DNA of 64,000 bases from Geosiphon pyriformis uo1 (taxonomy: Eukaryota; Fungi; Glomeromycota): the NCBI GenBank assembly GCA_016748015.1, contig JAAOMT010000523.1, positions 310,001 to 374,000 on the forward strand, read 5' to 3'. The notes below the pieces were generated by a model that had not been told where the DNA came from, made no database searches, and saw only the letters and a program-made list of their open reading frames with translations. Positions 2,769-36,776 of the stretch are shown here, piece after piece (position 1 is the stretch's first letter; each line of letters opens with the position of its first letter). Both the position numbers and the translations under genes were made by a program.

Positions 2769-2922
2769 AAAGGTGAATTCTTCTAAAACGTATAATTTTG
2801 TTATGATCTTTATGATACGTCTTTGAGAAGTAATCTTTTAAAAGCTGAAGGGTATTATAAATATTATACATATACAAATGAAAAATGACCTATTATTTGA
2901 AGAATTAATCGAATGAGGTTAG

Positions 2923-4666: not shown

Positions 4667-5813
4667 TGTTTTTAAACTATAAATTAAAGGTGAAGGCAAG
4701 CTTCGGCTCCGTTTTAAAACACCTTCCCCATCGTTACAGCCACTGTAATACGGAAACAAGCGTGTGACTTGGTTTTCTTGGCATATCATAGATACTTTTT
4801 TTCGGTGTCCCTTTTTGAATTTACAGTTGGAAAGGATGTTCGCGAATGTTTGGTTGTCTGTATATTGCGAAAAGACTAGGATAAAATTTTTATTTAACTG
4901 TTTATTCCCATTACATTTAAAGTTATCATGTGTCGCGTCAGCTTTAAACATGACGCCACAAATGCTGAGAGTGTTTAAAATATTTGAATAATAATTACTA
5001 AATATATTAAAATAATTTGTACAAAAACATTATTTAATAAAAATATTAATATAGTACTAACACTAATTATAATGCTTAATCTTATTCTGGTTGTAAACAA
5101 TAACCTTTTTCTGTTTTGAATAATAGCAACAACACATCTGCCAATTTTAATTTGAATTAGCAATTGGCTTTATTGGTTAATGTAATAAATTTTGGTTAAC
5201 TATTGTCAGTTTTAAAAGCAAAAAAAGTTATATTCTAATATACATTTTTTTTAATCAACTTATTATATTATTTGATTAAAAATATTATTGGTTTTAATAG
5301 TATTTAAAAACAATTATTAATTATTAAGTAAATAATTTTTATTTTGGTTCTTAATATTATTATAAAAATTAAAATAATTTATATTAAAACTGTGTTTTAA
5401 TTTTTGTATGTTTTATTAATATTAAATTAAATATAAAAAACTTTTTTGTATAAATTTGTATTTTAAAATTTTTTAATATTGTTGCTAATATTAAACTTGT
5501 TAATTTTTTTTGCTATTTTTAAAATTATTAAGTTTTTTTATAATTTGTGTTGTAATTTTTATTTTTGCTGTTGTAATTTTTTATTTTATTATTATTTTAA
5601 TGTATAATCTAATTATTATTTAATAAAATATAATTATAAAATATTTTAAATTAAACATAATTTATATGTTTTTTATATATAATTAAATACAAATTTAATT
5701 TAAGCTAAATTATATTAAATCTATAAAAACAAACTTACTTAAAACAATTATTTAATATATAATTATAATTAAATTATTATTATTAAAAACCAAACAAAAG
5801 TTTTATTAATAAT

Positions 5814-9300: not shown

Positions 9301-12300
9301 TGCAACACCCCAAACTTACTGCAAGTAAGAGAAATTCAATCCAAAAAGATCTTAGAAAGAATCTTGTAAACAGTGTTACTGAAGGTTTTTGGTCTTTTTT
9401 CTTGAATGTTGTAAATGTCTGTTGGTTGCAAATTCACGTTTTCTAGAAGTAGTTGAACCTTCAATAACTGAATTTATCTTCAAATTATTTCCTATAATTT
9501 GAACTGCTGAGCTTGTGAGTAGAATGGCCAATTCTGTGCCAGTTACTTTATGTAGTTACATTGTAGTAAACATCAACTTTTTCCCAGGAATTGCTCATCT
9601 AAAAGCTTATCAAAATGTGTAGTTATTTTGCTGTGAAAGTCAACTCTTCTACAGAAATCTTGTCTGTAGGCTACCCTAATGATTATAGTAAGAAAATAAA
9701 AAAAAATAAAAGAAATGTAAAAGAAATTGAATTTTGTCAAGGGAAATGTTTTCTATCTAGACCTGAAGTCACTAACAGTTTACTGAAATTGGTAGTTAAT
9801 CAATTTCAAAACGTTAGTTGGGTTTTGGGGATTTTCCAAGTGCAATAATTAAAGAATTTGGTTTTTCAAATTATTTGATATTTATTTTTTTTTGTGTGTG
9901 TAGAAATGGTTTTAAGTGATAAATCTAAAGTAAGATATATTTTCTTGAAGAGAAAAGCTCTTCTTTTATACAACTTGTTGTAGTACTAGTCTATGAACTT
10001 GCACTTTTTCTCTTTGCTCAAATTTTGACAAACTAAAGATACATTTTGATGAACTACAAGTTATTTTGCTGAACTATTAATTAATTTGGATGAACTATTC
10101 ATAATTTCGGCGAATTTCTATAAATTTTGGTGAATTTCTTATAAATTTCGGCAAATTTCTGTAAATTTCGGCGAATTTTTGAATGTTACAAAGTTCAGGG
10201 TATTGTGTAATTTGATCATCCTACTTTCTGTTATACTAATTGGATTATTTAATTGAATTGTGATATGTGATAATTGATTAAATAATAAATGATAATTTGA
10301 AATGATATTAATATACTAATTAATTATAGGAATTATAAGAGTAATTTCATGCTAATTAATAGCTAAAATTCTACTGGTAACAACAGTTTTTAGTAGAGCA
10401 ATAGGGCAAGTATTTGTCAAAACACCATTCTAATTATAAGGTTTAGATATTATAGAGACTTATGTCTTTCTCCACAAAACTGGAACTATGCTCATTCTTA
10501 GGCACAAATTTAAGAGATCCAACAACTTCTGAGAATGACTTCATTACAATGCTTCCATAATTTATTAGGAATACCACTAAGACCAGCAGTTTTCCCATCT
10601 GGTAAATGTTTGACAACCTAAAAAAGCTCATTAAAACCAATAACATTCATAACACCAGAGAAAGTATTATTATCTACATATTCTAAAGGAGCATACTGAT
10701 AAGACCAAGAAACAGAAAGGGGTGTAAACACTGACTGTTCTCTGGTCTATTTTTCCATTATCACATTAACTTTGGATTTAACTTCACCAGGATCTAAAAC
10801 AAGTTCATCATCTACCACCAAATAGTCAAAGACCACCTTGTAAAAAGACTTATCCAAAATACTTTTGATCATACAACCTTTGTTTATGCAAAAATTTTCC
10901 ATCTTTTTATCAATGGTATGCCTAATTGCTGTAACTTCAACAGCCTTAAACTTATGCATCTTGGAACAATGGTAACTTTTCTTAAATCTGGACAGACAAA
11001 CAAAAATTTCTATACTGCTGGCACTATTATTTATTATGTTTCAAACTTCAAGAGCCTTATTTTCATTAGCAATTAACCAAGCATTGAGAAGAAAACCAGT
11101 TCTAGAAGCATTACCAAACTGAAGAAACTTCACCAATTTAGTAACCAGTAGTTCCAGTTTAAAAAATTTTAAAGATTGTTTGTTAGAAAAACATTTGATC
11201 TTATGAAACCAATGTCTAAAGAATGTTTTATTAGCTGAATCAACCAACACCTTCACCAACAAGAACCACATAGAATCAAAATTTCTGCCAACACTAGTGA
11301 CCAAAAACTCATTAATTATGGAAGAAAACTTAACTAAAGAACAATCCTTAAAATGAGCTTATTTGAGACTGTCTGCATCTGCAATTTTGAACTTCCATCA
11401 ATTTTTATTAGCTTGCTTGTGCAAACTATTTAAATAAACATCTAAAAGCTCACCCAGACCAACTAACACCACAACAGCCTTGTGATTAGTGTTAAAATAA
11501 TCAGAGACAGAAGCAACAATCTGACCAGCAACTGTCAAAGACAAACTATCACTAACAAAAATGTAATTAATTGTTTTTTCAACACATCTTAAATTGCTCC
11601 ATGTTGGAGCCCTGACCAACTGGTGTGCACCAAATAAGTTGGCCAAACCCAGATCCAAACAGAACCTAAAACTTGCACTTTTCTTAGAATCATTCTCATT
11701 GAAGTTACCATTCAAGACCACAAAAATACTGGAGTTCAGAGCCCTTACAATAAAAGAGTTGATTTTCACAGCCTGACCAAATCTAGTTCTAGAGAATGCA
11801 CCAGCATATAAACCCAAAACTGTAACTAAGAGTTTGTTTTTAAAGAGGAGACACACTGAAATAACCCGACCAGGGACTTCCTTAACCTTAGAAACATGGC
11901 AGACCAAAAAATTGTTCATAATAATGGCCATTCCAGCATCAAGAAATTTTTTGTCCAAACCAGATGAAAAAATTCTGATACCATTAAACTTGTTCATAAT
12001 TCAAGGTCTACAACCAGACTTCAACTTTGTTTCAATAACAATTGAGACCATATTTCTAGATTCTACATGCCAATACACAATGTTCTTCTGCTTTGTAGAA
12101 TTGTTTATGCCTTTGATGTTACATGTTGCAATCTTCTAGGCTAACTCACTTATTGAGAAAGAAATTGGAAGTGCATGCTACCAGCCAGGACCAGACTGTC
12201 AAGATAAGCTGACAAACTCAAAACTGAAGTGGAAAGACTCTCCAACATATTTTCAAATTTAACCATATTAAGGGGGGAAGAAGATTTCAAAAATGCAGCA

Positions 12301-16765: not shown

Positions 16766-17746
16766 TGTTACTGGAGGTTTTTGGTCTCTTTTCTTCAATA
16801 TTATTAATGTTAATTTGCTGTGAATTTATGTTTCCAGGAAGTAGTTGGACCTCCAGTAACTGAATTTATTCTCAAATTATCTTCTATAATTTGAACTTGC
16901 TGGACTTATAAGTGAAATGGCCAATTCCGTGCCAGTTGCTTTGTGTAATTACATTGTAGTAAACGTCAACTCTTTCCCAAGAATTGCTTGTCTGAAAGCT
17001 TATTAAAAATGTGTAGTTACTTTGCTGTAAAAGTCAACTCTTCTACAGGAATCTTGTCTGTAGGCTACCTTAATAATTATAATGAGAAAATAAAAGAAAA
17101 ATAAAAAAAATGTAAAAGAAATTGAATTCTGTCAAGGGAAACGTTTTTTATCTAGGCCTGGAATCACTAACAGTTTACTGAAATTGGTAGCTAATCAATT
17201 TTAAAACATTAGTTGGGTTTTGGGGATTTTCCAAGTGCAATAATTAAAGAATTTGGTTTTTTGAATTTATTTGATATTTATTTTTTTTTGTGTGTGTAGG
17301 AATGGTTCTAAGTGATAAATCTAAAGTAAGATACATTTTCTTGAAGAGAGAAGCTCTTTTTTTATACAACTTGTCATAACATTATTCCATGAACTTGAAC
17401 TTTGCTCTTTTCTACAATTTTGCTGAACTAAAGATACATTTTGGTAAACTACAAGTTATTTCTGCGAACTATTAAATATTTTGGTGAACTATCAATTATT
17501 TCGGTGAATTTCTACAAATTTTGGCAAACTTTTGAATGTTACATATTTCGGGGTATTGTATGATTGATTATTGCAATTAGGTTATATTTGTGTTATGTAC
17601 AATTTGAATTATTAATTAAATGATAATTTTGGACATTTTGCTAATGTAATAAGTAATAATTTAAAATAATAATATATGTTAATTAATGATAGAAATTATA
17701 AAGATAATTTCATGCTAAATAATATCTCTAATTTCATCTGGTAACA
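16766..17746 (-). repeat. 3' LTR of Gypsy A (981 bp)
   Basis: TGTTAC...GTAACA; adjacent PPT; direct repeat of 35797-36776. Confidence 0.95.
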
Positions 17747-18434
17747 TAACCTCTTCCTCAAGACTGAGCTCCGTCAAAGTCCAAGTACTGTCTGTAATTT
17801 CCAGATAGTAATTCAAGATTACTGAAGAAATTTGGTCTGAAAATTTTTGAAATTCCAGTTCTGTGAGCTTTCCAATGTATTAAATTTTCAAGGATTGAAA
17901 AATTGGGTTTTGTAGAACGTTTTCACAGGTGTGAAATAGGTCATAAAGTCTAAGAGCAGCTCTGAGCTTGTAGCAACTGTTTGTTGGTCCAGCTGTTGTC
18001 TTGAATTCATTGTGGAGTTGTTTCTGAATAGCTTCTTTTGTGAGATTTGCTGTTGTAAGTTCTAGTTTTCATTCGTAGAGTGTTTTTCCAATGTGGAAAT
18101 ATCTATAGATTGGAGAGTATTCAGTGCTTTTCTCATTGAGACACAGTTGAAGTCTTTGTTGAATTGTAGCATTTGGTGGAATACTAATTGGAGTGAGCAT
18201 TAAGTTTTCTCTTAAAGCAAGCTTTAAAAGTTCTGGCAGGTGAATTCCAAAATAACTTCTTGTATTCTTTTTATAAGGGTGATACTTCTGTGAATTTGGA
18301 GCTAAATTTGTGACTATTTCTGTTTAAGTATAATTAATATGGTTTCTAGTAACAGTAATGGATAATTCAGATATTGTTTTTAAAGCTAACATTAGTTTTT
18401 GAGATAATTGTTGAATGTTTTGAGGAATAGTCAT
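17715..18434 (-). pseudogene. Extra ORF3 of Gypsy A downstream of integrase (240 codons, 3 internal stops), function unknown
   Basis: Hand translation MTIPQNIQQLSQK...PIYRYFHIGKTLYE*KLEL...YKLRAALRLYDLFHTCENVLQNP...IGKLTELEF...EEVMLPDEIRDII*. Homologous to 26707-27528. Confidence 0.7.
17747..17759 (-). other. Polypurine tract of Gypsy A
   Basis: Minus strand reads GAGGAAGAGGTTA directly before the 3' LTR TGTTAC. Confidence 0.85.
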
Positions 18435-18582
18435 TATAAGAGATTTGAAATAAAAGAAAATTATTTTTTGGTGTGTGGGTTTTTATGTTATTTTTGTTTT
18501 TCAGTGTGCTTTGTTTTGTTTTTGTTGTGAAATTGTTTCTAAATTATAAAGAAATAACTATAGTAAAATTGAAATTAAGTGT

Positions 18583-21500
18583 TCAAGTTGGGGGTTGTTC
18601 AATGACAACTATTGGTTCTAAGTTTCGGGTAATATCTTCGGGATTGATTAAAGGAGAATGTATACCAATTTGTGGAATTAATAGTTCAGGATTGTTTTTG
18701 GAATTATAGTGTTTCAAATGATCTCCATGTGCAACTTTTGCTAGGATTTTGTCATCAAGTCTTAGCTTGTATGATCTGTTGCCTAGAACTTTATGGATAA
18801 AGAATGGTTTATCCCATTTATTTTCAAATTTTCCACTCCATTGTTTTTCAGCTTTAGTTCTGTGTAAGAGAACTTTGTTTCCAATTTTAAGTTCATTGAT
18901 AACTGAAGGCAATTTGTTGTCATGCCATTCTTTTTGTTGAGCTTGAAAGTGTTCAATATGAGTGGCTGCTATTTGTCATTTTTTTTCTAACATGCTAAGC
19001 AGAGTGTAGGCTTTTCATTGAAGCATTTCCTGGAAATTGTCTTCACTGATTGGTTGTGCTGGATATGTTTCTATTGTTAAACTAATTGGTAATGTTGCTG
19101 TCTTTCCATAAATTAAATCAAATGGTGTATGTTTTGTGGTATCTTGTTTTAGTGTCCTATATGTTAGTAACACTGATAGAATAAAGATATCCCATTTTTG
19201 CTCAAAATCAGTTAAAACTTTGGCTAATGATTTACACAGTGTCCTATTGAAATGTTCTACAAGCCCATTTGTTTGTGGATAGTAGGGCAAAGATAATGGT
19301 CTCTTGACATTAAATTGTTCACAAATTTTCTGGATTAAATTGTTCACAAAATGTGTTCCTTGATCAGATAAAAGTTCTATTGGGCATCCATGTCTACAAA
19401 TGATATCTTCATAGATGAAGTTTGCTACTGATTTTGTATCTGCTTGTTGAATAGTTCTGGTTTCAGGCTATTTGGTGAGATAGTCTACAGCTACTGCAAT
19501 ATAATGGTTTCCTTGGTTTGTGATAGATAGTGGTCCGACTAAATTGATACCAATTCGGTCAAAAGGCTGTTCAACTTTGATTGGGTTTAAAAGTTCTGTA
19601 GGGCAAGTTCCTTCTTTTCTTTGACAACTATTACAAGACTTAATGTATTCATAGATGTCTTTTCTCATTTGAGGCCAAAAGTAATATTTTAGTGTTTGCT
19701 GGGTGGTGCTGTCCTTTCCTAAGTGTGCTAATAAAAGGTCTGAGTGCATGTTATATAAAATGGTTTTTTTTTCATGTTCTTGTATTAATCTGAGTGGATT
19801 GTCTGGGTTTCTGAAGTTTCAATAATAAATCATGTTGTTGTGTAAGAAGTATTGTTTGGCTTGTTGTTGTAACTGATGTTTTTCATCTGGAGACCAATTT
19901 GTTGAGATTGATAATGTCTTCAAATATTGTTTAAGATTGTTGTAGTTTTCAGGGTTCATTGTTTGTTGTTTTGTTGCTATTAATTCAAATGAGTGTTGGT
20001 TTTGTGTTCTAATCTTGTCTCATTCTTGAGAGACAATCAACATTGGTGTAGAGTTTTTCTGGTTTATGGTGTACAATGTATCAGTAGTTGGCTAAAAATT
20101 CTGTCCATTGGGTTTGTTTGGTGTTTAGCTAAGTATTTTTGTTCTGAAGCCATTTGAGTTCAATATTATCAGTGATAATATCGAATTCTTTTGGCCAGAA
20201 ATAAAGGTTGAAATAATGTAGGGCCCAAATTACAGCTGTTATTTCCAATTTAGTAGCAGGATAATTTTTTTTGGCTGGTTTTAATGTTCTGCTGGCATAA
20301 GCAATTACTCGCTCATTTCTATGGTCATCTAATTGTGACAAAATCACACTGAAAACAGTGTAAGAAGCATCTGTGGCTAATCAAAATTGGTTACTGAAGT
20401 CTGAATAGGTGAGAATTGGAGCTGTTGTCAGCTTTTCCTTGAGAATTTCAAAAGCTTTTTGGTGTTCAGTAGTCTATTTATATTCAACATTTTTAGTGAT
20501 GAGCTGGTTGAGGGGTTTTGCAATTTCTGAGAATCCTTTGGTAAACTTCTGATAGTAGAATGCTAATCCAATAAATTCTCTTAGTTCTGTGGTATTTCGA
20601 GGAGTTTTGAAATTTTTGACAGTGTTTATTTTTCCTGGATCAGGTTTGATTCTATTTTTACTAACAATGTGACCAAGAAAGGCCAAACTCGTTTTTCCAA
20701 AGTAGTATTTTTCAATGTTCAGTTTCAATCCTGCTTTCCGTAATCATTGAAAAACTTTTTGCAGGTGTTTTAAGTGTAATTCAAAAGATGGTGAATAAAC
20801 ATCAGTATCATTGAAATAGACAACTACTGATTTCCAAAGAAGGCCTTTGTAAACAACATCTATGAGTCTTTGGAATGTTGCTAGTGCATTGCATAATCCA
20901 AAAAGCATTATGTTGAACTCATAATTTCCTTCTTGAATGGTGAATGCTGTTTTGGGGCGATCTTCGGGATCCATGGCAACTTGCCAGTATCTATTCTCTA
21001 AATCTAATGTCAAAAAGTATTTGGACTTTCCAAGAGCATCTAGCATGTCATCAATTTGAGGAAGAGGGTAGGCATCTCCAATAGTGACACTGTTGAGTTG
21101 TCGATAATCAACACAAAATCGTATCTTTCTATTTTTTTTTTAATTAAGACCACAGGTGAGGCCCATGGACTCATTGATGGTTGAATAAGCCCATTGTTGA
21201 GCATCCGTTGTATTTCTTCATGGATAAATTGGTGACTTTCTGGAGTAACTCAGTAGGCTTGTTGTTGCCTAGGTTTGGCATCTCCTGTGTAGATTTAATG
21301 TTGAACCAAATTGGTTCTTCCTAAGTTATTGTTGTTTTTGGCAAAGATATTGGCAAATTCTGCAATTAGCTCTTTGAACTGGTTTTGTTGTTGTGGTTCA
21401 AGTTGTCCCATGTTGATTTGAGATAGTTTTTCCATAACAACATGGTAGTTTTTGGAGCTGGAGTTTGGGTTGATTTTTGGTAGTGAATGTCCAATAATTT

Positions 21501-23700
21501 CAGAGAAATTGGGGACTGTTTGGAGTAATTCTTGTTGAAAGATATTACTGTGAATAACTCCAATTTCTAAGTTATTTAATAAAACTATGGGGTAATTATT
21601 GGGGTTGTAAAAAGTAACTCGGATTTTCTTTGTTCCTTTTGGAATGTAGATATTTGGGATCAAGATATTATGTTCCAAGCAGATTCATTCATTGGACTTA
21701 AAAATTTGTTGGGTGATTGTTGGCTTTGGGCAGGTATAGATTTTGGAGTGTTCTTTAAAAGATGAAATAGTAATTGGTTGGAGAAGGCATAAAATCTGGT
21801 GAGACTCATTCTGTTTATTGAGAGCTATGTTTACTGGAACTGTGAATCGTCTAGTTGAACCAAAACCTTGTGTTCCTCTTTTGCTTTTTCCCAATTGTTC
21901 TCTTTGATTGACTAACTGTAAACCCGAAATGTTGATTAAGGGTAAATAGATAGCTTAAGCAATTTTTTCGGCATGTTCAATTTTGAAAGGTTTATTGGTT
22001 TCATTTTGGAGTATTACTGTTATATTACCAGTATATTCAGCATCGATTATTCCTCCTCTGACATTGATTCTTTTGCTTGCCAGAGAGGACCAGGAGGCAA
22101 TTTGAACTATTGCTCCTGGCGGAATTTCGAGAGCAATTTTGAGGTTGATTTTTGTGAGAGATTTGGGTTTGAGAACAAGAGTATTCTTGTCTGGATTATT
22201 TAGGTCATATCCAGCATCAATTTCATGTGCTTTTTCAGGTTTTATTCCTTGTCCATTGTTGTTGAAGTATTTGAGTTGTAAGGCAGGCTGATTTTTGATG
22301 AAATAGATGAGTGTTGTTTCAATTTCTTCTGTTGCTTCAGGTTCTCCAAATTCAATTTTGTTTTCATTGTTTTCACTAAGCAGAAGAATGCTAAGAGCAT
22401 AGCATTCAGGGCACCATTGTTCATTGCAAGGCATTATGCATTCTTCACACAATTTAATGTTCATTTGCTCTAGCCATTGGGCTTGAGCTTCTTTGGTCGG
22501 GTAAGTGTGACTGGCAATTTGGTAATATATTTTTACTTCATCTTTGTAATTGTATCCAGTGATTTCAAAGGTGCATGCAATATATTCTGATTCTTTTATT
22601 TGACGAACATTTTCTTGAGTGGCTCCATTGATTAAAGTCATTGCTAGATTAAAAATCATTTTGGCATTGTGAGGGTAATGATACAGTTTGTTGAGGGCGC
22701 TATTGTAAGCAGTATTGAAAGAGGTTTCTCTTGTTACTTTTTCTGAAATTAAAAGGGCATATTGACATGTTTGATAACAGACTTCTCCTTTGAATGCAAC
22801 ATCAATCCAGTTACATTCATCAGGTAATTGTTTTTCACAAGTAAACAGGGCATTCTATTCCATTTTTCACTTCTTTTGACTAGGTGTCCTCATCGTTGTC
22901 AGTGGCAGGATTTGCAATAGTAACAGATATGGTTTCTGTATTCTTCCTCGGGTGAAATACAAGCTCTCATTAATGAGAGTTTCTTGTGGCAATCTTTGTA
23001 TTTGAGTGGAATGTAAGGGCATTGTTTTTGTGGTTCTGGTTTTGAATAGGGGACATTCCATCTGGGTATTACTGGTTTTTTTGTTTCAAAAGAATTGTTT
23101 GTTGAAAAATACTGTTGTTCAGTTTCATCAGCCCAATTGGAGGTTGATCCAAGTGCCATAAATGTTTCAATGATGGGTTTTTCTTTTTCTGGTTCGAATT
23201 CAAAAGCCAGGGCTTTTTCGGAATGTTTGTTGAATGTACCACAAGTGGCAGGTACCTGGGCATGTTGTCCTTAGTAAGAGATTGTTAACTCTTATGTCTC
23301 CCAATTCAGATTAGCATTGGCTTTTTAAAGCCAATTGTTTCTGACAAGAGCTTGGTATTAAGAAGCATCCATGACCAGAACTTTAATTAGAATGGTGATT
23401 CCATCAATTGTGAATGGGAAGTTGTCAATTTCTTCTACTGGAGTCTTTTTCATGCCATCAGCAGTGACAATGATTGTCTGAGCTGGTCGGTCAACATTCT
23501 TTTTTAGCTACTGCATTAATTGATATGTGATAATGCTTCTGGCGAATTCACTATCTAAGATTAAGCAAATTGGCTTTCCTTCTGCTTCAGCTTCTGTGTA
23601 CATTGCAGTGATGGCTTTTTGCTTGTTAGCTGCTGCATTGCTAAGCAAAAATGGTGATTTGTTTGCTTCAAATTCGAAAAGGAATATATCTAAAAGGTTG
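18583..23700 (-). pseudogene. Gypsy A pol: protease, Cys-rich domain, dUTPase, RT, RNase H, integrase
   Basis: ORF fragments 23508-23960 (PR), 21955-22659 (dUTPase), 20744-21046 and 20474-20728 (RT), 20129-20347 (RH), 19468-19749 (IN HHCC), 19015-19347 (YYPQTNGLVE), 18583-18912 (GPF-like motif). Confidence 0.92.
21850..22270 (-). pseudogene. dUTPase domain in Gypsy A pol
   Basis: Trimeric dUTPase motifs: AGYDL (I), ASWSSLA (II, RSS), GGIIDAEYTG (III), KIA*AI (IV), RGTQGFGST (V). Confidence 0.93.
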
Positions 23701-23959
23701 GCATTTTCAGCAATTCTGGCTGATGGGATTATGGTAGAAGTATAGAAAAGATTTTGTTGTTGTGCTGCAGCTCTATCTTCTGAGAGTGCAGTATGGCGAA
23801 AATCCTGTTCTTCTGGCATCATAAGATAACTAGGTTGAGTATGATAGTGGTTGGATCTTGGTTGAGCTGAATTTCGGGGAACCAATTGGTTGTTCGAATT
23901 AATTCTATTGTTGTTTACTTGGTATTGGTTTTGTGGTGTAAACTGATTTTGCGGAATCA

Positions 23960-25630
23960 ATCTTCAAGCAGGCACTTGATAATGTTGTGTGGGTGGTTGT
24001 TGGTATTGCTGTTAAATTGGCTGTGGAGTGGGCTGATAATAGTTACTTTGGTATTGGGGTCTTGGTAGATAGTAAGCTGGTGGTGGTGGTTGATAATAAG
24101 ATTGCTGTGGTGGAGGGTAATGTTGATTACTCCTATTTTGTTGGTCTTATTGTAGCTTTCTGCAATCTCTTTTCCAGTGGCCAGGAATTCCACAGTAATA
24201 GCAATTCTGAGGCTGGTTATTAGAAAGTAGTACAAAGTTATTTTGATTTTGTCTTTGGGGTGGTTAATATCTTTGGGATTGTTGTTGTTGTTGTTGGTTG
24301 GTGAAGTAGTTTTCAACTTTCTTGGTTAATTGGTCAATCTTTTCTTCAGCTGCTGAGCTGGTTTCTCCAATAGCCAGATTAACAAGTTTGGTATGGTTGG
24401 CTTTTTCCATGGCCATTTCATAGTTTTTTGCCTGTTGAATAGTAGTGGCTAAATCTTCTGGTGCATGTGGGCAAACTTTCTTGATAAGTTTGTCTTTTAG
24501 TCCAGCAATGAATTGATCCAAGATTTGTGCATTGGAGTAGTATTCATTGGTTTCCAATTGCCGAATTTTTCTAAGCAGTTTGTTGAATTTCCCAAGATAG
24601 GTCATAACTGATTTACTTGGTTCTTGCTTGATATTTCGGAACCAATTTTGAAGAGTAATGGAAGTGTTATTGTCAGTGAACTGTTCTAGAAAAGCAGTTT
24701 TAAATGCTTCCCAGTATTCTGGTAGAGCTTCCAAGTTTTCAAACCATTCATCAGCCATTCCTTGTAGGAAGTATGGAATTGCTTTTAACATTCTGGCAGT
24801 GTTCCAACCATTTGTATCTCCTGTTTTTGAGACTTTGTCAAGCCATTTTTGAGGACTGGTTTTGCTGTCTTCTCCTGTGAACTCAGGAATTTTTGCAATA
24901 TATGTGGAGGCCATTTCTTCTTTGTTTTCTGAGTCTTCTGTTTCTTGTTCTGATTTGGTCTCTTCACTTCGATTTTCTGTTAAGTAGTCAATAAGGTTTG
25001 TGCTGGTTAATATTGGTTTCTGTTGTTGAATAGAGCTTTTGGATGACTGGAAATCTTCTATTCTTGAAAACCGAATAAGTAGTGAACTTGGTGTTTGTGG
25101 TTGAGCAAGTGAAGCTGGAAATGGTGTGATTGAGAGTGGTAATTTAAAGCTGGTTCCTTGTTCTGGAGTTTGTAAATGTTTGGCAGTGGTTTTAGGTGTA
25201 TTGGGAGTAGTTCTGAGTTTTTGTTTTTTTTTTCCTTTTCCTTCTTCTGTTTCCGATTTAAAACTAAGAGAAAATTTCTGTTCTACTGGGTAATTCTCTT
25301 CACAATACTGAATGATATTGAAGTTGAGTTCTTGGAAATATGTTTCAAGTGTTTGACTGTTAAAATCTTGAGTGTTTAGATGAGAGTGATGTACTAAGCT
25401 TTCATATAAGTTGTGTCTAACTTCTGAAATGTTGTAGTCTCCAAAAAGATAATTGTTGATGTGATTTTCAATGTACTGATAAAGTGTTTTTTTGAATGTT
25501 TCAATTCCATTTGGGATGTTAAATCTCTGCTTGCAGTGAATGTAGATTGACTGATAATACTCTAGAGTTCTTGAATCTGTTTGAGTTGCCACTTTTGAAT
25601 TTATTGTTGCTGTGTTATTTCTGTAAGAGA
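23960..25630 (-). pseudogene. Gypsy A gag
   Basis: 456-aa ORF with retrotransposon capsid-like region (IPEFTGED, LQGMADEWF, FIAGL). The CCHC knuckle at about 24160-24205 is in the same frame after one stop. Confidence 0.9.
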
Positions 25631-25634
25631 GCAC

Positions 25635-26706
25635 TGTTACAGGTAAACTTGGTGGGTATGGGAAATGGTAATGTTTGGTGCTCTCAATTATTGATGATGT
25701 ATCTTCCGCGTAATTCTGTTGGCTTAGTCTTGATTATTAATCTCTGAAGGTCTATTCCTGGATGTAAATTTACCTGTCGAGTTCTTTGGTTATAAGGCAC
25801 AAAGTTTGTCTTTTGTCGATTGCAATGTTTTTTGTAAATGTGAGCTCTCTTTTCCGAGCTAACAAGCACAGTTATTAGGATCTGGCATTGTCTTTTTACC
25901 CTTCTGGTAAGTTAACAAGATAAAGTTAATATCCAAAACTTAGAAAGAGCTTCCCTCTTTTACCAGGCTATCACGAAGTCTATTCCTAGACAGTTGATTT
26001 TACTATGTTGCTGCTCCACAAAAATAAAACAGAAAAAAAAAAGGAAAGAAAAAAAAAGAGAAAAAAGATAAATTAGTATTGTCAATTGCCATAATTAAGA
26101 GCGATTAGTCCAAATCGTTAATAGGTTCGAGACGGTTATGCTAAGAGCATCTGTTCTAGAACGGAGGCACGAAACAAGAGTTAATTCACGTAAATTCTAC
26201 AAAGTTCAAGAACATAAATTCGTGATTCTGATTTCTTTAATAATTGGTTTATTTCAGGAGATGAAATAGGGAAGATAATAAAAGATGAAGGGGTATGGAT
26301 ATTTTAGTTCTTGTCTAAAGGTTTGTATCTATCTGTTTGTCTTTTCTCACTTCTATAACTACTTGCTTTTATACATTCTTTTGGTTTTACAGAATTGCTT
26401 TCAATTGTCTTGCTATTGCTAGCTATTGTTTTGTTGTTTCTGTTATTGCTTCGTTTTTCTATGTTATTACTAGTTATTCTATGTTATAACACATTATCTG
26501 ATGTTATTACATGTTATTTTGTGTTATCCTGTATTATAACACATTATTCTATGTTATTGCCACGCTATTCTGTATTATCCTGCATTATAACATGTTATCC
26601 TATGTTATAACGCATTATCCAATGTTATTGCACATTATTCTGTGTTATGTCATGTTTTGGTCACGTTTCTTTATAACTTTGGATTGGTTTTTCTACTCGG
26701 ATAACA
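25635..26706 (-). repeat. 3' LTR of Gypsy B (1072 bp)
   Basis: TGTTAC...ATAACA (mutated GTAACA); direct repeat of 34707-35788; PPT at 26707-26722. Confidence 0.95.
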
Positions 26707-27528
26707 TTATCTCTCTTTTTTTAAAATTAAGCTCCTGCAAAACCATATGTATCTGTTATCATGGCTTTATTTGTGTAATGTTTTGATTGTTGCCTCGAGT
26801 ATTGTCTTTTGTAGGTCTTTGAACTGTTGATTGGTTATTCATTCTATGTTATTAACCATTATGGTTTTCATAAATCCATTCAGTAGTATGTTTGGGCAAT
26901 GTTGGAAGGTGGCATATAGTCGGTATGCTGCTTTGTAATGTAGGGTCAGATTGTTTTTCCCTACAAATTTTTCTACTTGTTGTATTGTTTCTTTGTTGAA
27001 TGTTTTCTGGCTGAGGTCTTCATATGGTGTTTTCAAGTTAAGCTGTTCTCCAATTTTGTAGAACCAATAAGTTGGAAAAAGTCTTTCTTTTCATTCCTGG
27101 GCATTGTCAGATGTCCACTCCTCTGTTTCAGGGAGTTCGGTCCCACAAGCTAAAGCTTTTTTTATTTTTTCGAGCTTAGGGACCAAGTATCTTCTTTTGT
27201 AACCTTTTTCTTGTTCTTTGCCTTCTTCTTTTCCATCTTCTGCCCAAAGGCAATTTTTCTTCCAACATTGTCTTTTGGGTGGTGGATAGAGGAATGTTTA
27301 GTTCTAATTGAACTTTCGTCCTCCTCTCTCCTGCTCTTATCTTTGTACCATATCTCTTTTTTTATTAATTGTTATTTCTATTTGAGATGCTTATTTTTGA
27401 ATTGTTTCAAATAATTGTCTAGATAATTTTAAATTGATCTGAAAGATCCATGTTGAAATTTCTATTGTTTCTTGCTGCTTTTTGGATGTTATATATATTT
27501 GAATTCCCCAATTTAATTTGCTGTCCAT
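26707..27528 (-). pseudogene. Extra ORF3 of Gypsy B downstream of integrase
   Basis: ATG at 27528 just after the integrase stop (27534-27532). Contains PTYWFYKIGEQL...LHYKAAYRLYATFQHCPNILLN...IE*LTNQQF, which aligns with ORF3 of family A. Has stops and a probable frameshift. Confidence 0.65.
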
Positions 27529-27531
27529 TGT

Positions 27532-30500
27532 CTACATTTTGATGATGATAATTGGTTCCAGATCTTGTGGTATATCTTCTGGTCTGATTAATGAAATTTG
27601 TGTTTCTAGTTGAGGTACTGATAATGATAATTCCTGTTTTACATGATAAATTTTTAACCGATTTCCATGCACTACTTTTTTTAAAATTCTGTCTTCCAAT
27701 CATAATTTGTAAGCTCCATTTCCTAATGCTTCGTGTATGTGGAATAGACTGTTCCACTTTGGGTCGAACTTTCCACTCCACTGTTTTTCAGCTTTTGTAT
27801 GATGTAACAGTACTTGGTCTCCAATCTTGAATTCCATTGATTGTTTTGATAGGTGTTTATCATGTCTTTTTTTTTGTCATTTTTGAGCATGACTAATATT
27901 GTCAGCTGTTGTTCTTCGATTGTTTTCCAATGTTTCTATTAGCTGGTATGTTTTTTGGTGTAAAATAGCTTCAAAATTCTCTTCATTGATTGTTTCTGTT
28001 GGATATGATGGTATCACTTGTTCAATTAGTAATGTAGCTTTTCTTCCATAAACTAGTTCAAATGGTGTGAACTGAGTCATATTTTGTTTCAATGTTCAGT
28101 ATGCAAAGAGTACAAAAGGTATAAATAAGTTTCATTCTTGTCTGTTTTCATGACTTATTTTTGCTAATGCTTCGCACAGTGTTTTGTTAAATTGTTCTAT
28201 CAGTCTATTTGTTTGTGGGTGGTATGGTGACGATAAGAGTCTCTTTATTCCAAACCGTTGGCTTAGTTCAGTCAGCGTATTATTAACGAAATGTGTTTTC
28301 TGATCAGATAATAATTTTTTCGGACATCCATGTCAGCAAATTAGGTCTTAATGCACAAATTCGGCTACTGTTTTGGTGTCAGCCACTTGGATTGCTCTGG
28401 CTTCTGGCCATTTTGTAAGATAGTCTACAGCTACAGTGATATAGCAATTTCTTTGGGATATAATTGAAAGAGGTCCAACCAAATTGATCCTAATTCTATC
28501 AAATAGATTTCCAACTGGAATGGGTCGAAGTGGTTCTGTTGATCTTGCTCTTCCTTTTCACTAGCATGTATCACAATTGAGCATGTATTCGAAAATGTTT
28601 TTGTATATTGTTGGCCAATAGTATAAGTTTAATGTTCTTTTGAGGGTAGCATCTTTGTTAAAGTGTTCTGCAGTCAGATCTGAGTGCACGCTATATAGTA
28701 TAGTTTCTCTTTTACTGTTCTTGATTAGTCATTGTAAGTTGGGGTGGTTTCAACATTCTCGTCAATATAGTTGGTTGTCTTGAATAAAATAATTTCAGGC
28801 TTGTTTTTGTATAGTACTCTGTTTCTGTTGAGATAATATCTCCTTGAAATGTAGTGTCGATAGGTACTAATGTAGTCGTTGATAAGTAAGTGTGTTCATG
28901 GGTCTGAAATTAGGTTTGTGGTATTCTTAACAAACTGTTGGCATTGGTGTTCTTGGATTCTTCCTTGTAATAAACTTTGAGTGAAAATTGTTGCAGATAA
29001 GTACTCCATCTTGCATATTTTCCTTCTAGTTGTGAATTGTTGAGTAACCAAATAAGTCTTTTGTGGTCAGTATATAGATTAAATGGTTGACTGAGATAAT
29101 GTTTCCAAGTCTGTATGGCCCAATAAATGATGAGACATTCTAGATCTGTTGTGCTGTAATTCTTTTCTGCTGGACTAGTGCTGTGACTAGCATAGACAAC
29201 TGGGTGTTCTCTATTGTCTGGTCCTATCTGTAATAAGACTGCTTCTAGAGCATTTTTTGAGGTGTCCGTAGCAACAATAATCTGTTTAGTGAAATCTGGG
29301 TAAATCAGAATTGGGGATGTGATCAATCGTTGCTTAAGATAGTCAAATGCTTTCTGTTGATCTTCCTTTCACAAGTATGGTACGTATTTGGACAACAATT
29401 GATGGAGTGGTTTTGTGATGTTCAAGAAACCTTTGACAAATTGATGATAATATCCTGCCAATTCTAGAAATCCTCGTAATTTTTTGAGGTTGATTGGGGC
29501 TAAAAAATCCTTGACTTTTTGTACTTTATCTGGATCGGGTTTAACTCTGTTCTTGCTGATTACATGTTCTAAGAATTTTAATTTGGTTTTTCCAAAGAAG
29601 CACTTCTCGGGATTGAGTTTCAATTCGGCACTACAAAGACATTTGAAGACTTGTTGCAGGTAGAGCAGATGGTTTTCGAATGTTTCAGAGAACACATTTG
29701 TGTCATCTAGGTAGACTACTACTGATTTCCAAAGGATTCCTTTATATACTACATCCATCAAGCATTAAAACATGGCAGGAGCATTACAAAGTCCAAAAGG
29801 CATTACATTAAACTCAAAGTTTCTGTCTCGAGTGGTAAACGCTGTTTTTCTTTTGTCTTTGGGGTCCATTTCAACTTGCCAGTAACCACTTACTAAATCT
29901 AATAACAAGAACTATTTCTTTTTCCCTAGATTGTCCAGAATTTCTTGGATGAAGGGAGTGGGATAACTATCTCCTTGCATGACACTATTTAGTTTTCAAT
30001 AATCTACACAGAATTGCACTTTTCCGTTTTTCTTGGTGACCAAGACTACTGAAAAAGACCAAGAGCTTAACAATTCTTTGATTAGGCCGTTATCAAGCAT
30101 CCATTGCACTTTTTGCTTAATTAGGTTATTGCCAGATGGAAGTATGCAGTAAGTTCGTTGCTTAATTGGTCGAGCGTCTCCTGTATCAATCTAATGCTTC
30201 ACGATGTCAGTGCATCCGAACTCATTTTTGCTGGCAAAGACATCGGCATACTGATTTAGAAGAACTTTAAGTTGCATTTGTTGCAAAGTACTTAAATTTC
30301 CTAAATTCAATTTATTGATCTCTTCTGGTGTGAACAAGTAACTTTCTTTTGGCAAATTCCATACTTGTGAGGTAATGTCACAGAATAAGAATAATTGTGT
30401 GAAATCTGAAATGAACTGGGGTTTTTCAGGATTCTGAATATCTGTGGATATGAAACTGATGAGGGTCTCTTTGGGAATTTCAATGACATCTTCTGTTGGG

Positions 30501-32520
30501 TTGTGGATGGAGATTTTGAAGTGTTTATGGACTTTGGCTGGTAGGTATAGATTAGCAACATTGGCTAGGAAACAGATTTTGGGACTGGCTTCGAATAACA
30601 AAGCTTGATCTTGGATCTTTCAATTCACCTTGAGGATGTATTGTCAGTATGGGGGAATAGAAATGATGGTATTGGTATTGATAAATTCTACCTGGTCACT
30701 GTTTTTCTCCATAAAATTAACTGGTACGTTTTCTCTTCCACTTGATCCAAACCCATTGATTTCTCAGGCAGTGAGACCTAACTCTTCTTGGGTTGTTATT
30801 GGGGTTAATTGTGGTATTTTGACTAGGAGTAGGAAGATAGCTTGGGCAATCTTTTCTTGTGATTCTATTTTGTAGGGTCTGTTCGAATTGTTCTGTAGCA
30901 TCATGATAATGTTTTCCATGTAACCAGCATCAATGATTCCCCCTTTTACGTCGATTTTTTTCTTGGCTAGACTAGATTGAAAGGCAACTTGTACCATTGT
31001 ACTAACAGGAATTTCTAATACTATCTTAAGATCTATTTTTACGAAGAAATGTGGGGCTATAATAATGGGTGATTGTCCGGAGTATCGTAAGTCAAAACTG
31101 GTATTAGTGTCATGCACTCTTTTGGAGCAGATTCCTTCCTTATTGTCACTGTACTATTTTAGTTCTAGTTCTTTAAATAGGTTGGAATACACAAGATACT
31201 GTTCTGTTTCGGTATCCTCAGTTGAATCTTGAAACGACATGTTCTTGGTGATCAATATTTCTTCTTCAGGCTCAGATAGTTTGGTGATTGAAAACAGTAT
31301 TCTTGGAGGCAGATTGAACATAAGATCACATTTGTTACAGTACTGGAAGTGACAGGAGATCAAATAGGAATTACACAGTTTGGTATTCAAATCAGCTAAC
31401 CTTTGCTCCTGTTCTTCACAAGTTGGGGCCAATTCCTGATATTAGTTCTGAAATCATCCTCGAGATAGTCGGGTTTATTATATTCAGGTGTCCAAGGGTT
31501 GTTCTTGATTTCTTGTATTTTTTTGGGTGTGGTGCCTTCAGCCTTGGTGCTTGCCATTCTCCAGATTTCATGGTCATTGTGTAGATAACTGTCCAGCCTG
31601 TTAAGTGCTCGTTTCCAAGCGTCTTCAATAGGGGTTCTCTTTCATACTCAATTGTTGATTAATATGATGTATTGACAAGCCTCGTCACATGTTCTTCTTC
31701 TGCCAGGCACATTATTCCAGAGTCCTTCATCTGACAGGATTTCACCACATGCAAGGCATGGCATGTTGTCCCACTTGTCTTGTTGTTTTGGTCATCCAAA
31801 TCTTTCCAGTAAACAAGGTCTGCAATAATATTTGGTGGCAGTGGGCCATTTTTTGTTGTTCCCAATACATACACTCATAGTGAATAGTTTTTTTCCACAA
31901 TCGACACATATTAGTCTTGGGAGTTGGTAAAATAAGTTTTTTTGGTCTGAGGTTACATATCTTAGTGATGATGATTGGGGTTCTTCTTCGGCTCTGCCTT
32001 TTTCTTTTTTTTCCCAGGTTGGTGGTGGGGGTAGTTTAGTTCGATAATCATCCGTTCATGAAACCTGATAGGTCTCGATGGTTGGTGGCATTGATGTGTC
32101 TTCAAATTCAATAAGGGGTTCTTTGGTACATTGGGTCTTAAAGTGTTTGCACATAGCTGGGACTCAGGCATGCTGTCCGTTAAATGTGAGTTGAAGTTCT
32201 TGGGTGTTCTAGTCAAGAGTAGCATTGGCTTTTGACAACCAATCATTTCCTACTAGAGCTTAATATTGAGTAGCTTCCATGACAAGTACTTTGGTAGGAA
32301 TTTGGATTCTATTAATCTCAAAGGGGAAGTTGTCAATTTCTCCTATCGGGGTTTTTGTGTTTCCATTCGCTGTAATGATTCGGGTGGTAGCAGCATGGTC
32401 TATTCGGTGACCTAGTTGGTCCATGAGCTGCTTCATGATTATGCTACCAGCTGATCTGCTGTCCAGGATTAATTTAATGTCTATTTCTCTGACTCTGACA
32501 TCGGTATATAGGGCCATTAT
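27532..32520 (-). pseudogene. Gypsy B pol: protease, Cys-rich domain, dUTPase, RT, RNase H, integrase
   Basis: ORF fragments 32260-32517 (PR), 30764-31117 (dUTPase), 29369-29761 (RT YLDD), 28910-29326 (RH, ATDTS), 27877-28092 (IN, TPFELVYGR). Confidence 0.92.
30735..31150 (-). pseudogene. dUTPase domain in Gypsy B pol
   Basis: TSFDLRY, AFQSSLA, GGIIDAGYM, KIAQAI, then *EINGFGSSG (motifs I-V). Confidence 0.92.
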
Positions 32521-32529
32521 TGGTTTATC

Positions 32530-34687
32530 CTAATTGATGGCTGCTCCACTAAAAAGGCTATGGGTGTTCAAATTATCAATGTCAAAAGAAAATATGGTGG
32601 CTAAAGTGGTGTCTTCGGTAATAGTGGTTGGTGGGATATTGCTTTTTGTTTGCTTGGAAGGTTGGGAGATTTGTTCTATATTTCTCCCTTCCACAGGTGT
32701 AGATTTATCAAAACCCTGGTCTTTCATAAGACCAAGATAGGAAGCTTGATTCAGGTATCCAGTTGGTATTGATTGAGATGGTCCACTGTTGGTTTGCACC
32801 TGATTGTTATTGAAATTCCTCCATCTCTGATTATAGTCTATAGCTCGAGGTCTGGATGGGCTGTAAAGGGAAGTTTAATAGTGAGGGATTACTTGTGTCA
32901 TTGGTGGTGATTGATAATAATTCTGGGACAGTGGTTGAATGTATGGGACTTGTTGTACATATAGGGGCAGTTAATTCTGAGGTATGGAATATTGGGGTAC
33001 TATGTTTTGCTGATATCTGAGTTGCTGGTATGAGTTTCCTTGATTTTGGTCCATGATCTTCTTTCTGCAGTCATAGGCAATGTGTCCAGATTTCTGGCAG
33101 TAATAACAGTTACAGAGATCAGATCTCCAAGGTTGTTGCTGTTGCTGACAGTTCTGTTGTTGTGGGTATCTGCTGTTGTTGTTATTTTCTCTCCGTTGGG
33201 GTAGTTGGTAAGTTCCTATAGTTCCGGCTAAGAATTTCTCAATTTTCTGAGTTAGTTTTTTACTCAATTGGGTTATCTTTGCATCGATGTCAGAGGTTCC
33301 ATTAATGGCTAAATTAACGGCTTAGATATGGTTTGCTTCTTGTTTTGCAGACTCAAAATTGCGAGCGAGAGTGATAGTGTCTTGTAAACTGGTCGGATGG
33401 TGGGGTCTTACAGATTTTAGAATACTACTCCACAATCCTTTAATGAATTAATTAAGAACTTGCGCTGTGGTGTAGTAGTCCCTTTCAATAGCTAATATTT
33501 GACGCAGAATTTGATTGAATTGTCCGAAATAAGTAGTTACTGCTTTGTGATCTTTTTGTTTAATTATGCTGAATTGATTCTGCAATCGGATTAATGTATT
33601 GGGGTCACAGAAGTATTGCAAAAATGTGAGTTTAAATTCGGTAAAAGAGGTAGACTTCTCTGTCAGGCTTTGGTACCATGAATTGGTAGTTCCAGTCAGA
33701 AAGAACAGCAGTGCCTAAATTGTGTGGTCATTGTTTCAATCATTAGTGGTAATTGCTTTTTCGGTGTCTACGATTCAAGAATATACATTATCTTCTTCAT
33801 TAAAGAATTTTTCCAATTTAGTGATATCCCAGTAAGTCATGATTTGGTTAATGGGTGAGATATTACTGGTTATGTTTAAAGGGATTGGTGTCCATATATT
33901 TGAGTGTTCTCTGGGTGCTAATGCTGGTTGCTTTCCTTTGTTGCTTGAACTAATAGGTTGTAAGATAGCTGTTTCTTCCATCAAGGGAGATGCTAATTCT
34001 ACTAAGTTTTGTGCTGGTGGCTGTTCCCAAGTTGATGGGTTTCTTTTTGTTTGACCAGCTGCTGGGGTAAGATTTCCAAACAGCAATCCGTATTCTCCTA
34101 GTGATTTGGTCCAACTGTGTTGATTCCAAGGGTGTGGATTTCCAGGAGTTCATGGTGTTTCCAACTGGGTTTTTAGGAATGGGTTGAATACAATTCTACT
34201 TTGGGGTGTCTGATGGTATAATGGAGTTGTTGGGGAGAGAACTCTTGGTTTCTTGTTGACTGTAGACTTGGCTTGGGCAGTTACAGGATTGTTGGATTCA
34301 TTTTCATATTCCTCAGGGTCAGATTCCACTGGTTGTTGTACTTGAGAGAATCATTGTGCCACATAATATTTAATGTCTGTATCAATTATGTGCAGAGTTT
34401 CAGTGATTGCTCGGGTAGTCATGGCTGTTGAGTACCCTAGTAAGCTTTGATGGATTTGTTCTCCAAGTTTTTCTGTATCAGTTGCGTGGCCTAACAAGCA
34501 GTTAATTTTTGTGTTAATATAGTTACAAAAATCACTTTCTGCGTAAGTGGTTTTTGCTGGTATTCCTAGGTCTTTTCGAAAGTATTGAAATAGTGCTTTT
34601 CCGTACAAGAAGTGGTCCTTTCCTATTGTTCCAATCGTCACCACTTTTATGTATTTTTGGGGGTGCTCTGTCTCTGTGGATTTATAA
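32530..34687 (-). pseudogene. Gypsy B gag (fragmented)
   Basis: ORF pieces 34351-34644, 33775-34086, 32971-33267 (CCHC knuckle), 32530-32799; homologous to gag of A. Confidence 0.85.
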
Positions 34688-34704
34688 CCTCACAGGGAGC
34701 ACCA
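34688..34704 (-). other. Primer-binding site of Gypsy B (TGGTGCTCCCTGTGAGG)
   Basis: Starts 2 nt after the 5' LTR with TGG. Its complement CCTCACAGGGAGCACCA resembles a tRNA 3' end (elongator Met or Ile-UAU type; not resolved). Confidence 0.85.
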
Positions 34705-34706
34705 AA

Positions 34707-35788
34707 TGTTACAGGTAAACTTGGTGGGTATGAGAAATAGTAACATTTGGTGCTCTTAATTATTGATGATGCATTTTTCGTGTAATTCTGTTGGCTTAGT
34801 CTTGATTATCAGTCTCTGAAGGTCTATTCCTAGATGTGAATTTACCTGTCGAGTTCTTTGGTTATAAGGCACAGAGTTTGTCTTTTGTTAATTGCAACAT
34901 TTTTTGTAAATGTGAGCTCTCTTCTCTGAGCTAACAAGTGCAGTCATTAGGGTCTGGCATTGTTTTTTCGCCTTTCTGGTAAGCTAACAAGATAAAATTA
35001 ATATCTAAAACTTAGGGAGAGCTTTCCTTTTTTACCAGGCTATCATGAAGTCTATTCCCAGACAGTTGATTTTACTATGTTGCTGCTCCACAAAAATAAA
35101 ACAGAAAAAGAAAGAAAAAGAAAAAGGAAAGAAAAGAAAAGAGAGAAAAAATAAATTAGTATCATCAATCACCATGATCAAGAGCAATTGGTCTAAATCA
35201 TTAATAGATTCGAGGCAGTTATGCTAAGAGCATCTGTCCTAGAATGGAGATATGAGACAAAAGTTAATTCATGTAAATTCCATGAAGTTCGAGAACATAA
35301 ATTTGTGATTCTGATTTCTTTAATAATTGGTTTATTTCAGGAGATGAAATAGAGAAGATAATAAAGGATGAAAGGGTATGGATATTTTAGTTCTTGTCTA
35401 GAGATTTATATCTATCTGTCTGTTTTTTCTTACTTCTACAACTACTTGCTTTTATACATTCTTTTGGTTTTACAAGATTGCTTTCAATTGTCTTGCTATC
35501 ACTAGCTATTGCTTTGTTGTTTCTGTTATTGCTTCATTTTTCTATGTTATCACTAGTTATCCTATGTTATAACACGTTATCTGACGTTATTACATGTTAT
35601 TCTGTGTTATTCTGCATTATAATATGTTATTCTACATTATTGTGTGCTATTTTGTGTTATCTTGCATTATAACATGTTATCTTACATTATAATGCATTAT
35701 CCAACATTATTGCACGTTATTCTGTGTTATGTCACATTTTGGTCACGTTTTTTCATAACTTTGGATCAGTTTTTCTACTTAGGTAACA
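34707..35788 (-). repeat. 5' LTR of Gypsy B (1082 bp)
   Basis: TGTTAC...GTAACA; PBS adjacent. Confidence 0.95.
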
Positions 35789-35796
35789 GCACCAAA

Positions 35797-36776
35797 TATT
35801 ATTGGAGGTTTTTGGTCTCTTTTTTTCAATGTTGTTAATGTTGATTTGCTGTGAATTCATGTTTCCAGAAAGTAGTTGGACCTCCAGTAACTGAATTTAT
35901 CCTCAAATTATAGAAGATAATTTGAACTTGCTGGGCTTATAAGTGGAATGGCCAATTCCATGCCAGTTGTTTTGTGTAGTTACGTTGTAGTAAATGTCAA
36001 CTCTTTCCCAAGAATTGTTCATCTAGAAACTCACTAAAAATGTGTAGTTACTTTGCTGTGAAAGTCAACTCTTTTACAGAAATCTTGTCTGTAGGCTACC
36101 TTAATGATTATAATGAGAAAATAAAAGAAATGTAAAAGAAATATAAAAAAAATTGAATTCTGTCAAGGGAAATGTTTTTTATCCAGGCCTGGAGTTACTA
36201 ACAGTTTACTGAAATTGGTAGCTAATCAATTTTAAAACATTAGTTGGGTTTTGGGGATTTTCCAAGTGCAATAATTAAAAAATTTGGTTTTTCAAATTAT
36301 TTGATATTTATTTTTTTTTGTGTGTGTAGGAATAGTTCTAAGTAATAAATCTAAAGTAAGATACATTTTTTTGAAGAAAGAAGCTCTTCTTTTATACAAC
36401 TTGTCATAACACTATTCCATGAATTTGAACTTTGCTCTTTTCTACAATTTCGCTGAACTAAAGATACATTTCGGCAAACTACAAGTTATTTCTGCAAACT
36501 ATTAAATATTTTGGTGAACTATCAATTATTTCGGCAAATTTCTACAAATTTTGGTGAACTTTTGAATGTTACATATTTCGGGATATTGCATGATTGATTA
36601 TTGCAATTAGGTTACATTTGTGTTATGTACAATTTGGGTTATTAATTAAATGATAATTTTGAACATTTTGCTAATATAATAAGTGATAATTTGAAACAAT
36701 AATATATGCTAATTAATGATAGAAATTATAAAAATAATTTCATGCTAAATAATATCTCTAATTTTGTCTGGTAACA
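35797..36776 (-). repeat. 5' LTR of Gypsy A (980 bp)
   Basis: TATTAT (mutated TGTTAC)...GTAACA; followed on the minus strand by TT-TGGTGC, the first part of the PBS. Confidence 0.95.

Follow-up and report, generated by a model that had tools for sequence, protein, structure and literature searches.

The window analysed here, a stretch of 64,000 nucleotides (nt) of contig JAAOMT010000523.1 (positions 310,001 to 374,000), was taken to derive from the fungus Geosiphon pyriformis, since all 120 listed homologues of the gene discussed below are gene models of this species. Its minus strand carries a long terminal repeat (LTR) retrotransposon of the Ty3/gypsy (Metaviridae) type, element A, whose LTRs were delimited by self-comparison of the window (Table 1) and whose open reading frame (ORF) downstream of the polymerase genes, hereafter the accessory ORF, is the subject of this report. 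A second element, B, is nested in A; it sits directly after the 5′ LTR of A, within the primer-binding site (PBS) (35789-35796 / 25631-25634). Both elements have paired LTRs with TG...CA ends, save the 5′ LTR of A, which terminates in TA and not CA, together with a polypurine tract (PPT) and a PBS whose start is almost identical in the two. In both, gag, protease, dUTPase, reverse transcriptase (RT), RNase H and integrase follow the Ty3/gypsy order, with a Ty3-type capsid (matches to Retrotrans_gag, Ty3_capsid, RVT_1, RT_RNaseH, Integrase_H2C2 and rve). Differences between paired LTRs are overwhelmingly transitions (65 vs 6 transversions in A, 114 vs 2 in B), which indicates decay by transitions, and the observed/expected CpG ratio is 0.19 in A and 0.33 in B; the corresponding value for the host genes (1-5000) is 0.85.

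The accessory ORF of A lies between the integrase gene and the 3′ LTR, in sense orientation. The initial annotation had described it as a conserved sense ORF in the position of env, with a frame running through the PPT and ending inside the 3′ LTR, and both descriptions were borne out: the PPT encodes E-E-E-V, the first bases of the LTR encode M-L-P, the stop falls 32 nt into the LTR, and position and read-through are kept in L001, a contig encoding the metagenome protein P0184. Immediately 5′ of the PPT, A (17772-17747), B (26735-26707) and L001 (3091-3116) have a conserved DNA motif, which lies in differing reading frames. As B reads the same motif in another frame, this sequence is likely a cis signal for reverse transcription, and the C-terminal tail of the ORF is not evidence at the protein level. 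The name ORF3 first given to the gene counts too low, since the integrase is here already an ORF in its own right, starting from an ATG that lies 49 nt (A), 10 nt (B) or 24 nt (L001) past the RNase H stop. This arrangement suggests that the RNA is polycistronic. These RNase H-integrase junctions are located at 20011-19959 in A, about 28910-28897 in B and 772-801 in L001, and the spacers of A and L001 are CAA-rich. No AG was found within 70 nt of the accessory ATG in A or L001, and several were found in B; thus splicing is not indicated for A.

Element B carries a homologous ORF. The A and B products share 29% identity over 100 amino acids (aa) (BLASTP E 3e-8), and their alignment score of 99 was equalled by none of 1000 shuffles (33.9 ± 5.2); for the N-terminal part alone, the score was matched by 16 of 1000 shuffles. 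The residue motif that had been quoted as common to A and B was found in both. Thus the homology proposed at the outset stood, and the coordinates given for the B copy (26707-27528) did not: its ATG homologous to that of A lies at 27451 rather than 27528, and the copy, with about four frameshifts and about four stops, ends at 26721. When 1.84 billion representatives were searched with a profile, 70 matches were obtained, 33 of them of known source, namely 31 from Geosiphon and 2 metagenome proteins (P0183, P0184). About six Geosiphon subfamilies and two metagenome lineages, grouped by eye, can be distinguished at roughly 20-38% identity to P0184. L001 encodes RT-RNase H and integrase, followed by a 316-nt spacer and an intact ORF that reads through into an LTR-like end. 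Its identity to A amounts to 54% in RT-RNase H, 55% in the integrase and 32% in the accessory ORF, and DNA similarity is confined to pol and the 42-nt PPT junction. An additional ORF is therefore conserved in position and intact in frame across diverged elements. Also, the L001 integrase contains a single in-frame TGA (1564-1566), its accessory ORF being intact. Among 40 family members, 12, including P0064 and P0095, show a weak match to phrog_23683, whose function is unknown.

Fixation of the internal stops in the family, which the initial annotation had named as fatal to its claim, was not observed. Homologous gene models have Q at codon 37 in 101 of 103 aligned rows and at codon 185 in 109 of 109, and Q, R or W at codon 122 in 58, 40 and 21 of 120. 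Such models cannot show stops and their counts are thus biased, so the DNA itself was checked in the contigs of run X1, where the non-stop base made up 97% of summed contig depth, which is not a copy count, at 18326 (codon 37) and 98% at 17882 (codon 185), codon 122 being mixed. Exactly 239 aa were found in 23 of the 120 listed homologues, and stop-free copies are present elsewhere in the genome. Selection was assessed on two sets of variants scored singly. In the first set (40 of 134 rows, 17786-17977), 25 of the 40 rows occurred on a diverged contig and seldom in the main family; 17 of these 25 fell on third codon positions (p 4e-4) and, minus one stop-codon row, 16 were synonymous and 8 nonsynonymous (p 0.002 against a synonymous expectation of 0.35 for transitions), for a rough ratio of nonsynonymous to synonymous rates (dN/dS) of 0.13-0.27. 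The second set (40 of 41 rows) comprised 28 rows segregating at 10-75%, which gave, after three codon-122 rows were dropped, 15 synonymous vs 10 nonsynonymous changes (p 0.01; rough dN/dS 0.36). Differences near-private to the window copy stood at 8 to 4 in the second set and 3 to 5 in the first. Overall, a rough dN/dS of 0.13-0.36 indicates purifying selection. From the unfixed stops, the homologues across lineages and the synonymous excess, we conclude that the accessory gene is real and long conserved.

The protein was said to lack a transmembrane helix, and the highest 19-residue Kyte-Doolittle mean, 0.44-1.14 across seven proteins, agrees with the absence of a membrane anchor. The N-terminus is of low hydropathy and is modelled as a helix and hairpin, and none of the seven proteins has a furin-type site (R-x-K/R-R). 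No significant match to the accessory protein was obtained in Pfam, among PDB sequences and folds, or among viral folds. A first structure model (P0003, 16 rows) was poor, with a predicted local distance difference test (pLDDT) of 47.6; the second, of the homologue P0184 with 40 rows, reached a pLDDT of 80.8 and a predicted template modelling score of 0.66. It is predicted to consist of a helix and β-hairpin, a basic flexible linker with the motif P-Y-x-R/K-K, a helix, and a helical core at pLDDT ~90, the order of elements being identical in both models. Hydropathy, the all-helical model, purifying selection and the conserved position in L001 together support a conserved soluble accessory protein rather than env, as first proposed.

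Several hints, each below significance, weakly suggest a ParB/DUF1016-type helix-turn-helix in the helical core. The ParB/Spo0J/KorB domain (PF17762) and the N-terminus of DUF1016_N/YhcG (PF17761) possibly share with the accessory protein a colinear core formed by a Y-F/W-x-I-G helix, a second helix, a glycine turn and an R-L/F-Y helix. Profile-profile comparison (hhalign) with ParB, KorB and DUF1016_N aligned them in the same register with scores within the shuffle range, and enrichment with hidden Markov models for these families was found mainly in the A subfamilies. Weighing against this assignment, the best DUF1016_N profile score was 14.6 bits for a curated cut-off of 32.8, and the same profile search gave no HTH_ParB match. 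The likeness to PF17762 and PF17761 fell below significance in all tests, and the turn in the accessory protein is about two residues longer. Also, the protein is devoid of the ParB CTPase and PD-(D/E)XK domains and carries, in their place, a helix-hairpin at its N-terminus and a long helix at its C-terminus. DUF1016 is listed, in the accessible part of PMC3424549, among PD-(D/E)XK families located near mobile and restriction genes.

Short repeats specific to each family, as would be expected of a circuit like those of foamy virus Tas or plant VANC, are present in A, B and L001; in L001, a 10-mer occurs four times with at most 2 mismatches. The residues right after the near-invariant Asn also vary between families. 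With three families compared, these two features are only consistent with a co-varying pair of protein and site. Our leading proposal, held tentatively and largely by analogy, is that the accessory protein may be a DNA-binding self-regulator of its own LTR, recognizing phased 10- or 20-bp repeats in U3 and keeping the LTR active. The protein would bind the DNA of its own element through the predicted helix-turn-helix, with the phased LTR repeats as the most plausible target. Binding would probably help to maintain LTR promoter activity in a CpG-methylating host, and expression could proceed by re-initiation or from a subgenomic RNA, given the lack of a splice acceptor near the ATG in A and L001. 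A more specific scenario, that a lineage of fungal retrotransposons acquired a helix-turn-helix of the bacterial ParB/DUF1016 type, which then became a trans-activator or anti-silencing factor specific to its family and acting on phased CpG-containing LTR repeats, in a Tas/VANC-like circuit with a separate integrase gene, is doubtful.

The main rival to this self-regulator is a helper acting at the RNA level, which would bind ribosomes or the RNA of the element to allow export or packaging, or re-initiation on a polycistronic transcript of pol, integrase and accessory ORF. Caulimovirus TAV and Rev-type proteins are models for such a role. The separate integrase ATG in A, B and L001 means that downstream initiation is needed, and the basic P-Y-x-R/K-K linker and the missing AG upstream of the accessory ATG would suit it as well; however, fold searches found no RNA-binding fold, the weak hints indicate DNA-binding families, and the protein is confined to Geosiphon and two metagenome lineages among matches of known source, so that we regard this role as unlikely. 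An integration cofactor, standing in for a chromodomain and anchoring the integrase complex on DNA that contains CpG or is methylated, appears somewhat less probable. The domain search gave no chromodomain match at the end of the A integrase, the GTGC and CTGT duplications and the TCAC/CTAC flanks of A could all derive from a central CG that has decayed, and a helix-turn-helix would fit too; yet an integrase by itself can determine a 4-bp site preference.

The initial annotation offered two functions, a regulator or a silencing suppressor. The former gained weak support from the possible helix-turn-helix, and the latter found no direct support. In favour of a suppressor of RNA silencing, binding small interfering RNA (siRNA) or Argonaute, the protein is small, soluble and faster evolving than the integrase (32% vs 55% identity), and its element is heavily depleted in CpG. 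However, searches of PDB and viral structures returned no named suppressor, and the anti-silencing functions of transposable elements described in the accessible text of PMC6719617 are narrow or family-specific, so that this role seems improbable. Were the protein to counter silencing, the hints would favour DNA-level action on its own element over siRNA binding. Position alone speaks for an envelope, fusion or cell-to-cell movement protein. Against it stand the hydropathy and absent cleavage site noted above, a length of just 230-244 aa, the helical model and the lack of any viral glycoprotein match, which make it very improbable; a classical Env identity is largely excluded. Equally remote is a captured sequence without function that is carried along passively, or a chance frame. 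Both window copies are indeed broken, and the C-terminal tail is accounted for by the PPT/LTR DNA signal, but the intact ORFs at ~20-38% identity across lineages without alignable DNA and the synonymous excess refute this reading for the family, and it holds only for the dead window copies.

Other features of the window include a Cys-rich, zinc-finger-like region without Pfam match between protease and dUTPase (~23300-22200 in A, ~31900-31200 in B), and an N-terminal extension of ~280 aa ahead of the capsid domain in the Gag of A (24264-25634). A solo LTR sits inside a LINE-like element and is flanked by a CTGT duplication. An exact direct duplication of 386 bp (53685-54070 / 54091-54476), possibly an assembly artefact, occurs in a LINE-like RT/RNase H element. 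The host genes at 1-5029 encode a protein with an AIRS_C domain (plus strand) and a Mid1 calcium-channel component (minus strand).

Table 1. Coordinates of features in the window.
Feature	Position	Strand	Remarks
Solo LTR	9374..10382	-	initial bases code an M-L-P-V-E-F-stop tail, as in the second A subfamily
3′ LTR of A	16766..17746	-	TGTTAC...GTAACA; accessory ORF of A stops within
Tandem repeats, 20-bp period	17417..17557	.	(decayed) CG core; near 5′ end of A LTR, presumed U3; candidate binding sites
Accessory ORF of A	17715..18434	-	239 codons, 3 internal stops; translated from ATG to TAG, 18434 to 17715
PPT (17759-17750) and upstream DNA motif	17747..17772	-	motif shared with L001 (86% over 42 nt) and B
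Predicted all-helical core, aa ~91-213	17796..18164	-	pLDDT ~90 in homologue model; best-conserved part across families
Stop at codon 185 (TAA)	17880..17882	-	unfixed in family; gene models and contig depth
Possible helix-turn-helix, aa 133-169	17928..18038	-	weak; turn G149, near-invariant N152, then R-L-Y..F
Stop at codon 122 (TGA)	18069..18071	-	mixed hypermutable codon in family; gene models and contig depth
Predicted N-terminal helix and β-hairpin, aa 5-37	18324..18422	-	pLDDT ~65 in homologue model; also in B, C, D and metagenome subfamilies
Stop at codon 37 (TAA)	18324..18326	-	unfixed in family; gene models and contig depth
Spacer, integrase stop to accessory ATG	18435..18582	-	148 nt, A/C-rich, 4 G; closest AG 76 nt upstream of ATG
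Integrase of A	18583..19959	-	zinc-binding, rve, weak SH3_Tf2-1; own ATG 49 nt past RNase H stop
gag-protease-Cys-rich region-dUTPase-RT-RNase H of A	20009..25634	-	decayed; domain matches
Element B	25635..35788	-	LTRs 35788-34707 and 26706-25635; nested in PBS of A; 4-bp duplication GTGC
Repeats, 10-bp period	26425..26678	.	near 5′ end of B LTR; unlike those of A
Homologous accessory ORF of B	26721..27451	-	frameshifted, with stops; ends ahead of PPT
5′ LTR of A	35797..36776	-	vs 3′ LTR: 908 identical columns, 65 transitions, 6 transversions, 3 gaps

Extra ORFs at the env position are a known kind of gene, and the protein family itself appears undescribed: we found no account of it in the literature, supplements and subscription papers apart. 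The accessible text of each source reports Ty3/gypsy elements with ORFs that follow pol in the place of env, namely in bdelloid rotifers (ORF3s, PMC5408684), fungal chromoviruses ("add. ORF", PMC2864245) and Ogre (PMC6431247), and some fungal and rotifer elements are reported to have a dUTPase located between the protease and the RT (PMC6431247, PMC2864245). The Geosiphon elements share both traits with them. The rotifer ORF3s, as far as that text goes, are env-like proteins, small transmembrane proteins, GDSL esterases or DEDDy exonucleases, and the Geosiphon protein matches none of these in Pfam. Also, unlike the additional ORFs of that text, the Geosiphon ORF is preceded by a stand-alone integrase gene, and its frame continues via the PPT into the LTR, in a comparison that did not extend to the fungal "add. 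ORF" list in file 1 of PMC2864245. The available portion of PMC3248453 mentions neither a dUTPase nor an ORF3. In foamy viruses, according to the part of PMC13220597 at hand, an internal promoter within env drives Tas (Bel1), which binds DNA and activates the LTR of its own virus. The accessory gene is likewise located towards the 3′ end of its LTR element and is proposed, by analogy, to act on its own LTR; however, no sequence or fold link was found, and the internal promoter is a feature of Tas. The VANC accessory proteins of the Arabidopsis VANDAL transposons, according to the consulted part of PMC6719617, target short tandem motifs that are specific to a family, in a host that methylates its DNA. 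The analogy would pass through the LTR repeats, VANDALs being plant DNA transposons to which no homology was found.

Whatever its function, about 200 G. pyriformis proteins annotated as "hypothetical" can be recognized as relatives of this one transposon accessory gene. The protein is small and well modelled and the candidate DNA sites are short, so the question of its role is directly testable. If our proposal is true, a fungal Ty3/gypsy element would have the layout of a complex retrovirus, with a 3′ accessory gene overlapping PPT and LTR. A striking LTR expansion is reported in Geosiphonaceae in the accessible part of PMC11952901, which does not cover element anatomy, and the elements described here are strongly depleted in CpG. 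An element-encoded DNA-binding regulator would, if confirmed, offer a testable reason for the amplification of this lineage in a methylating host.
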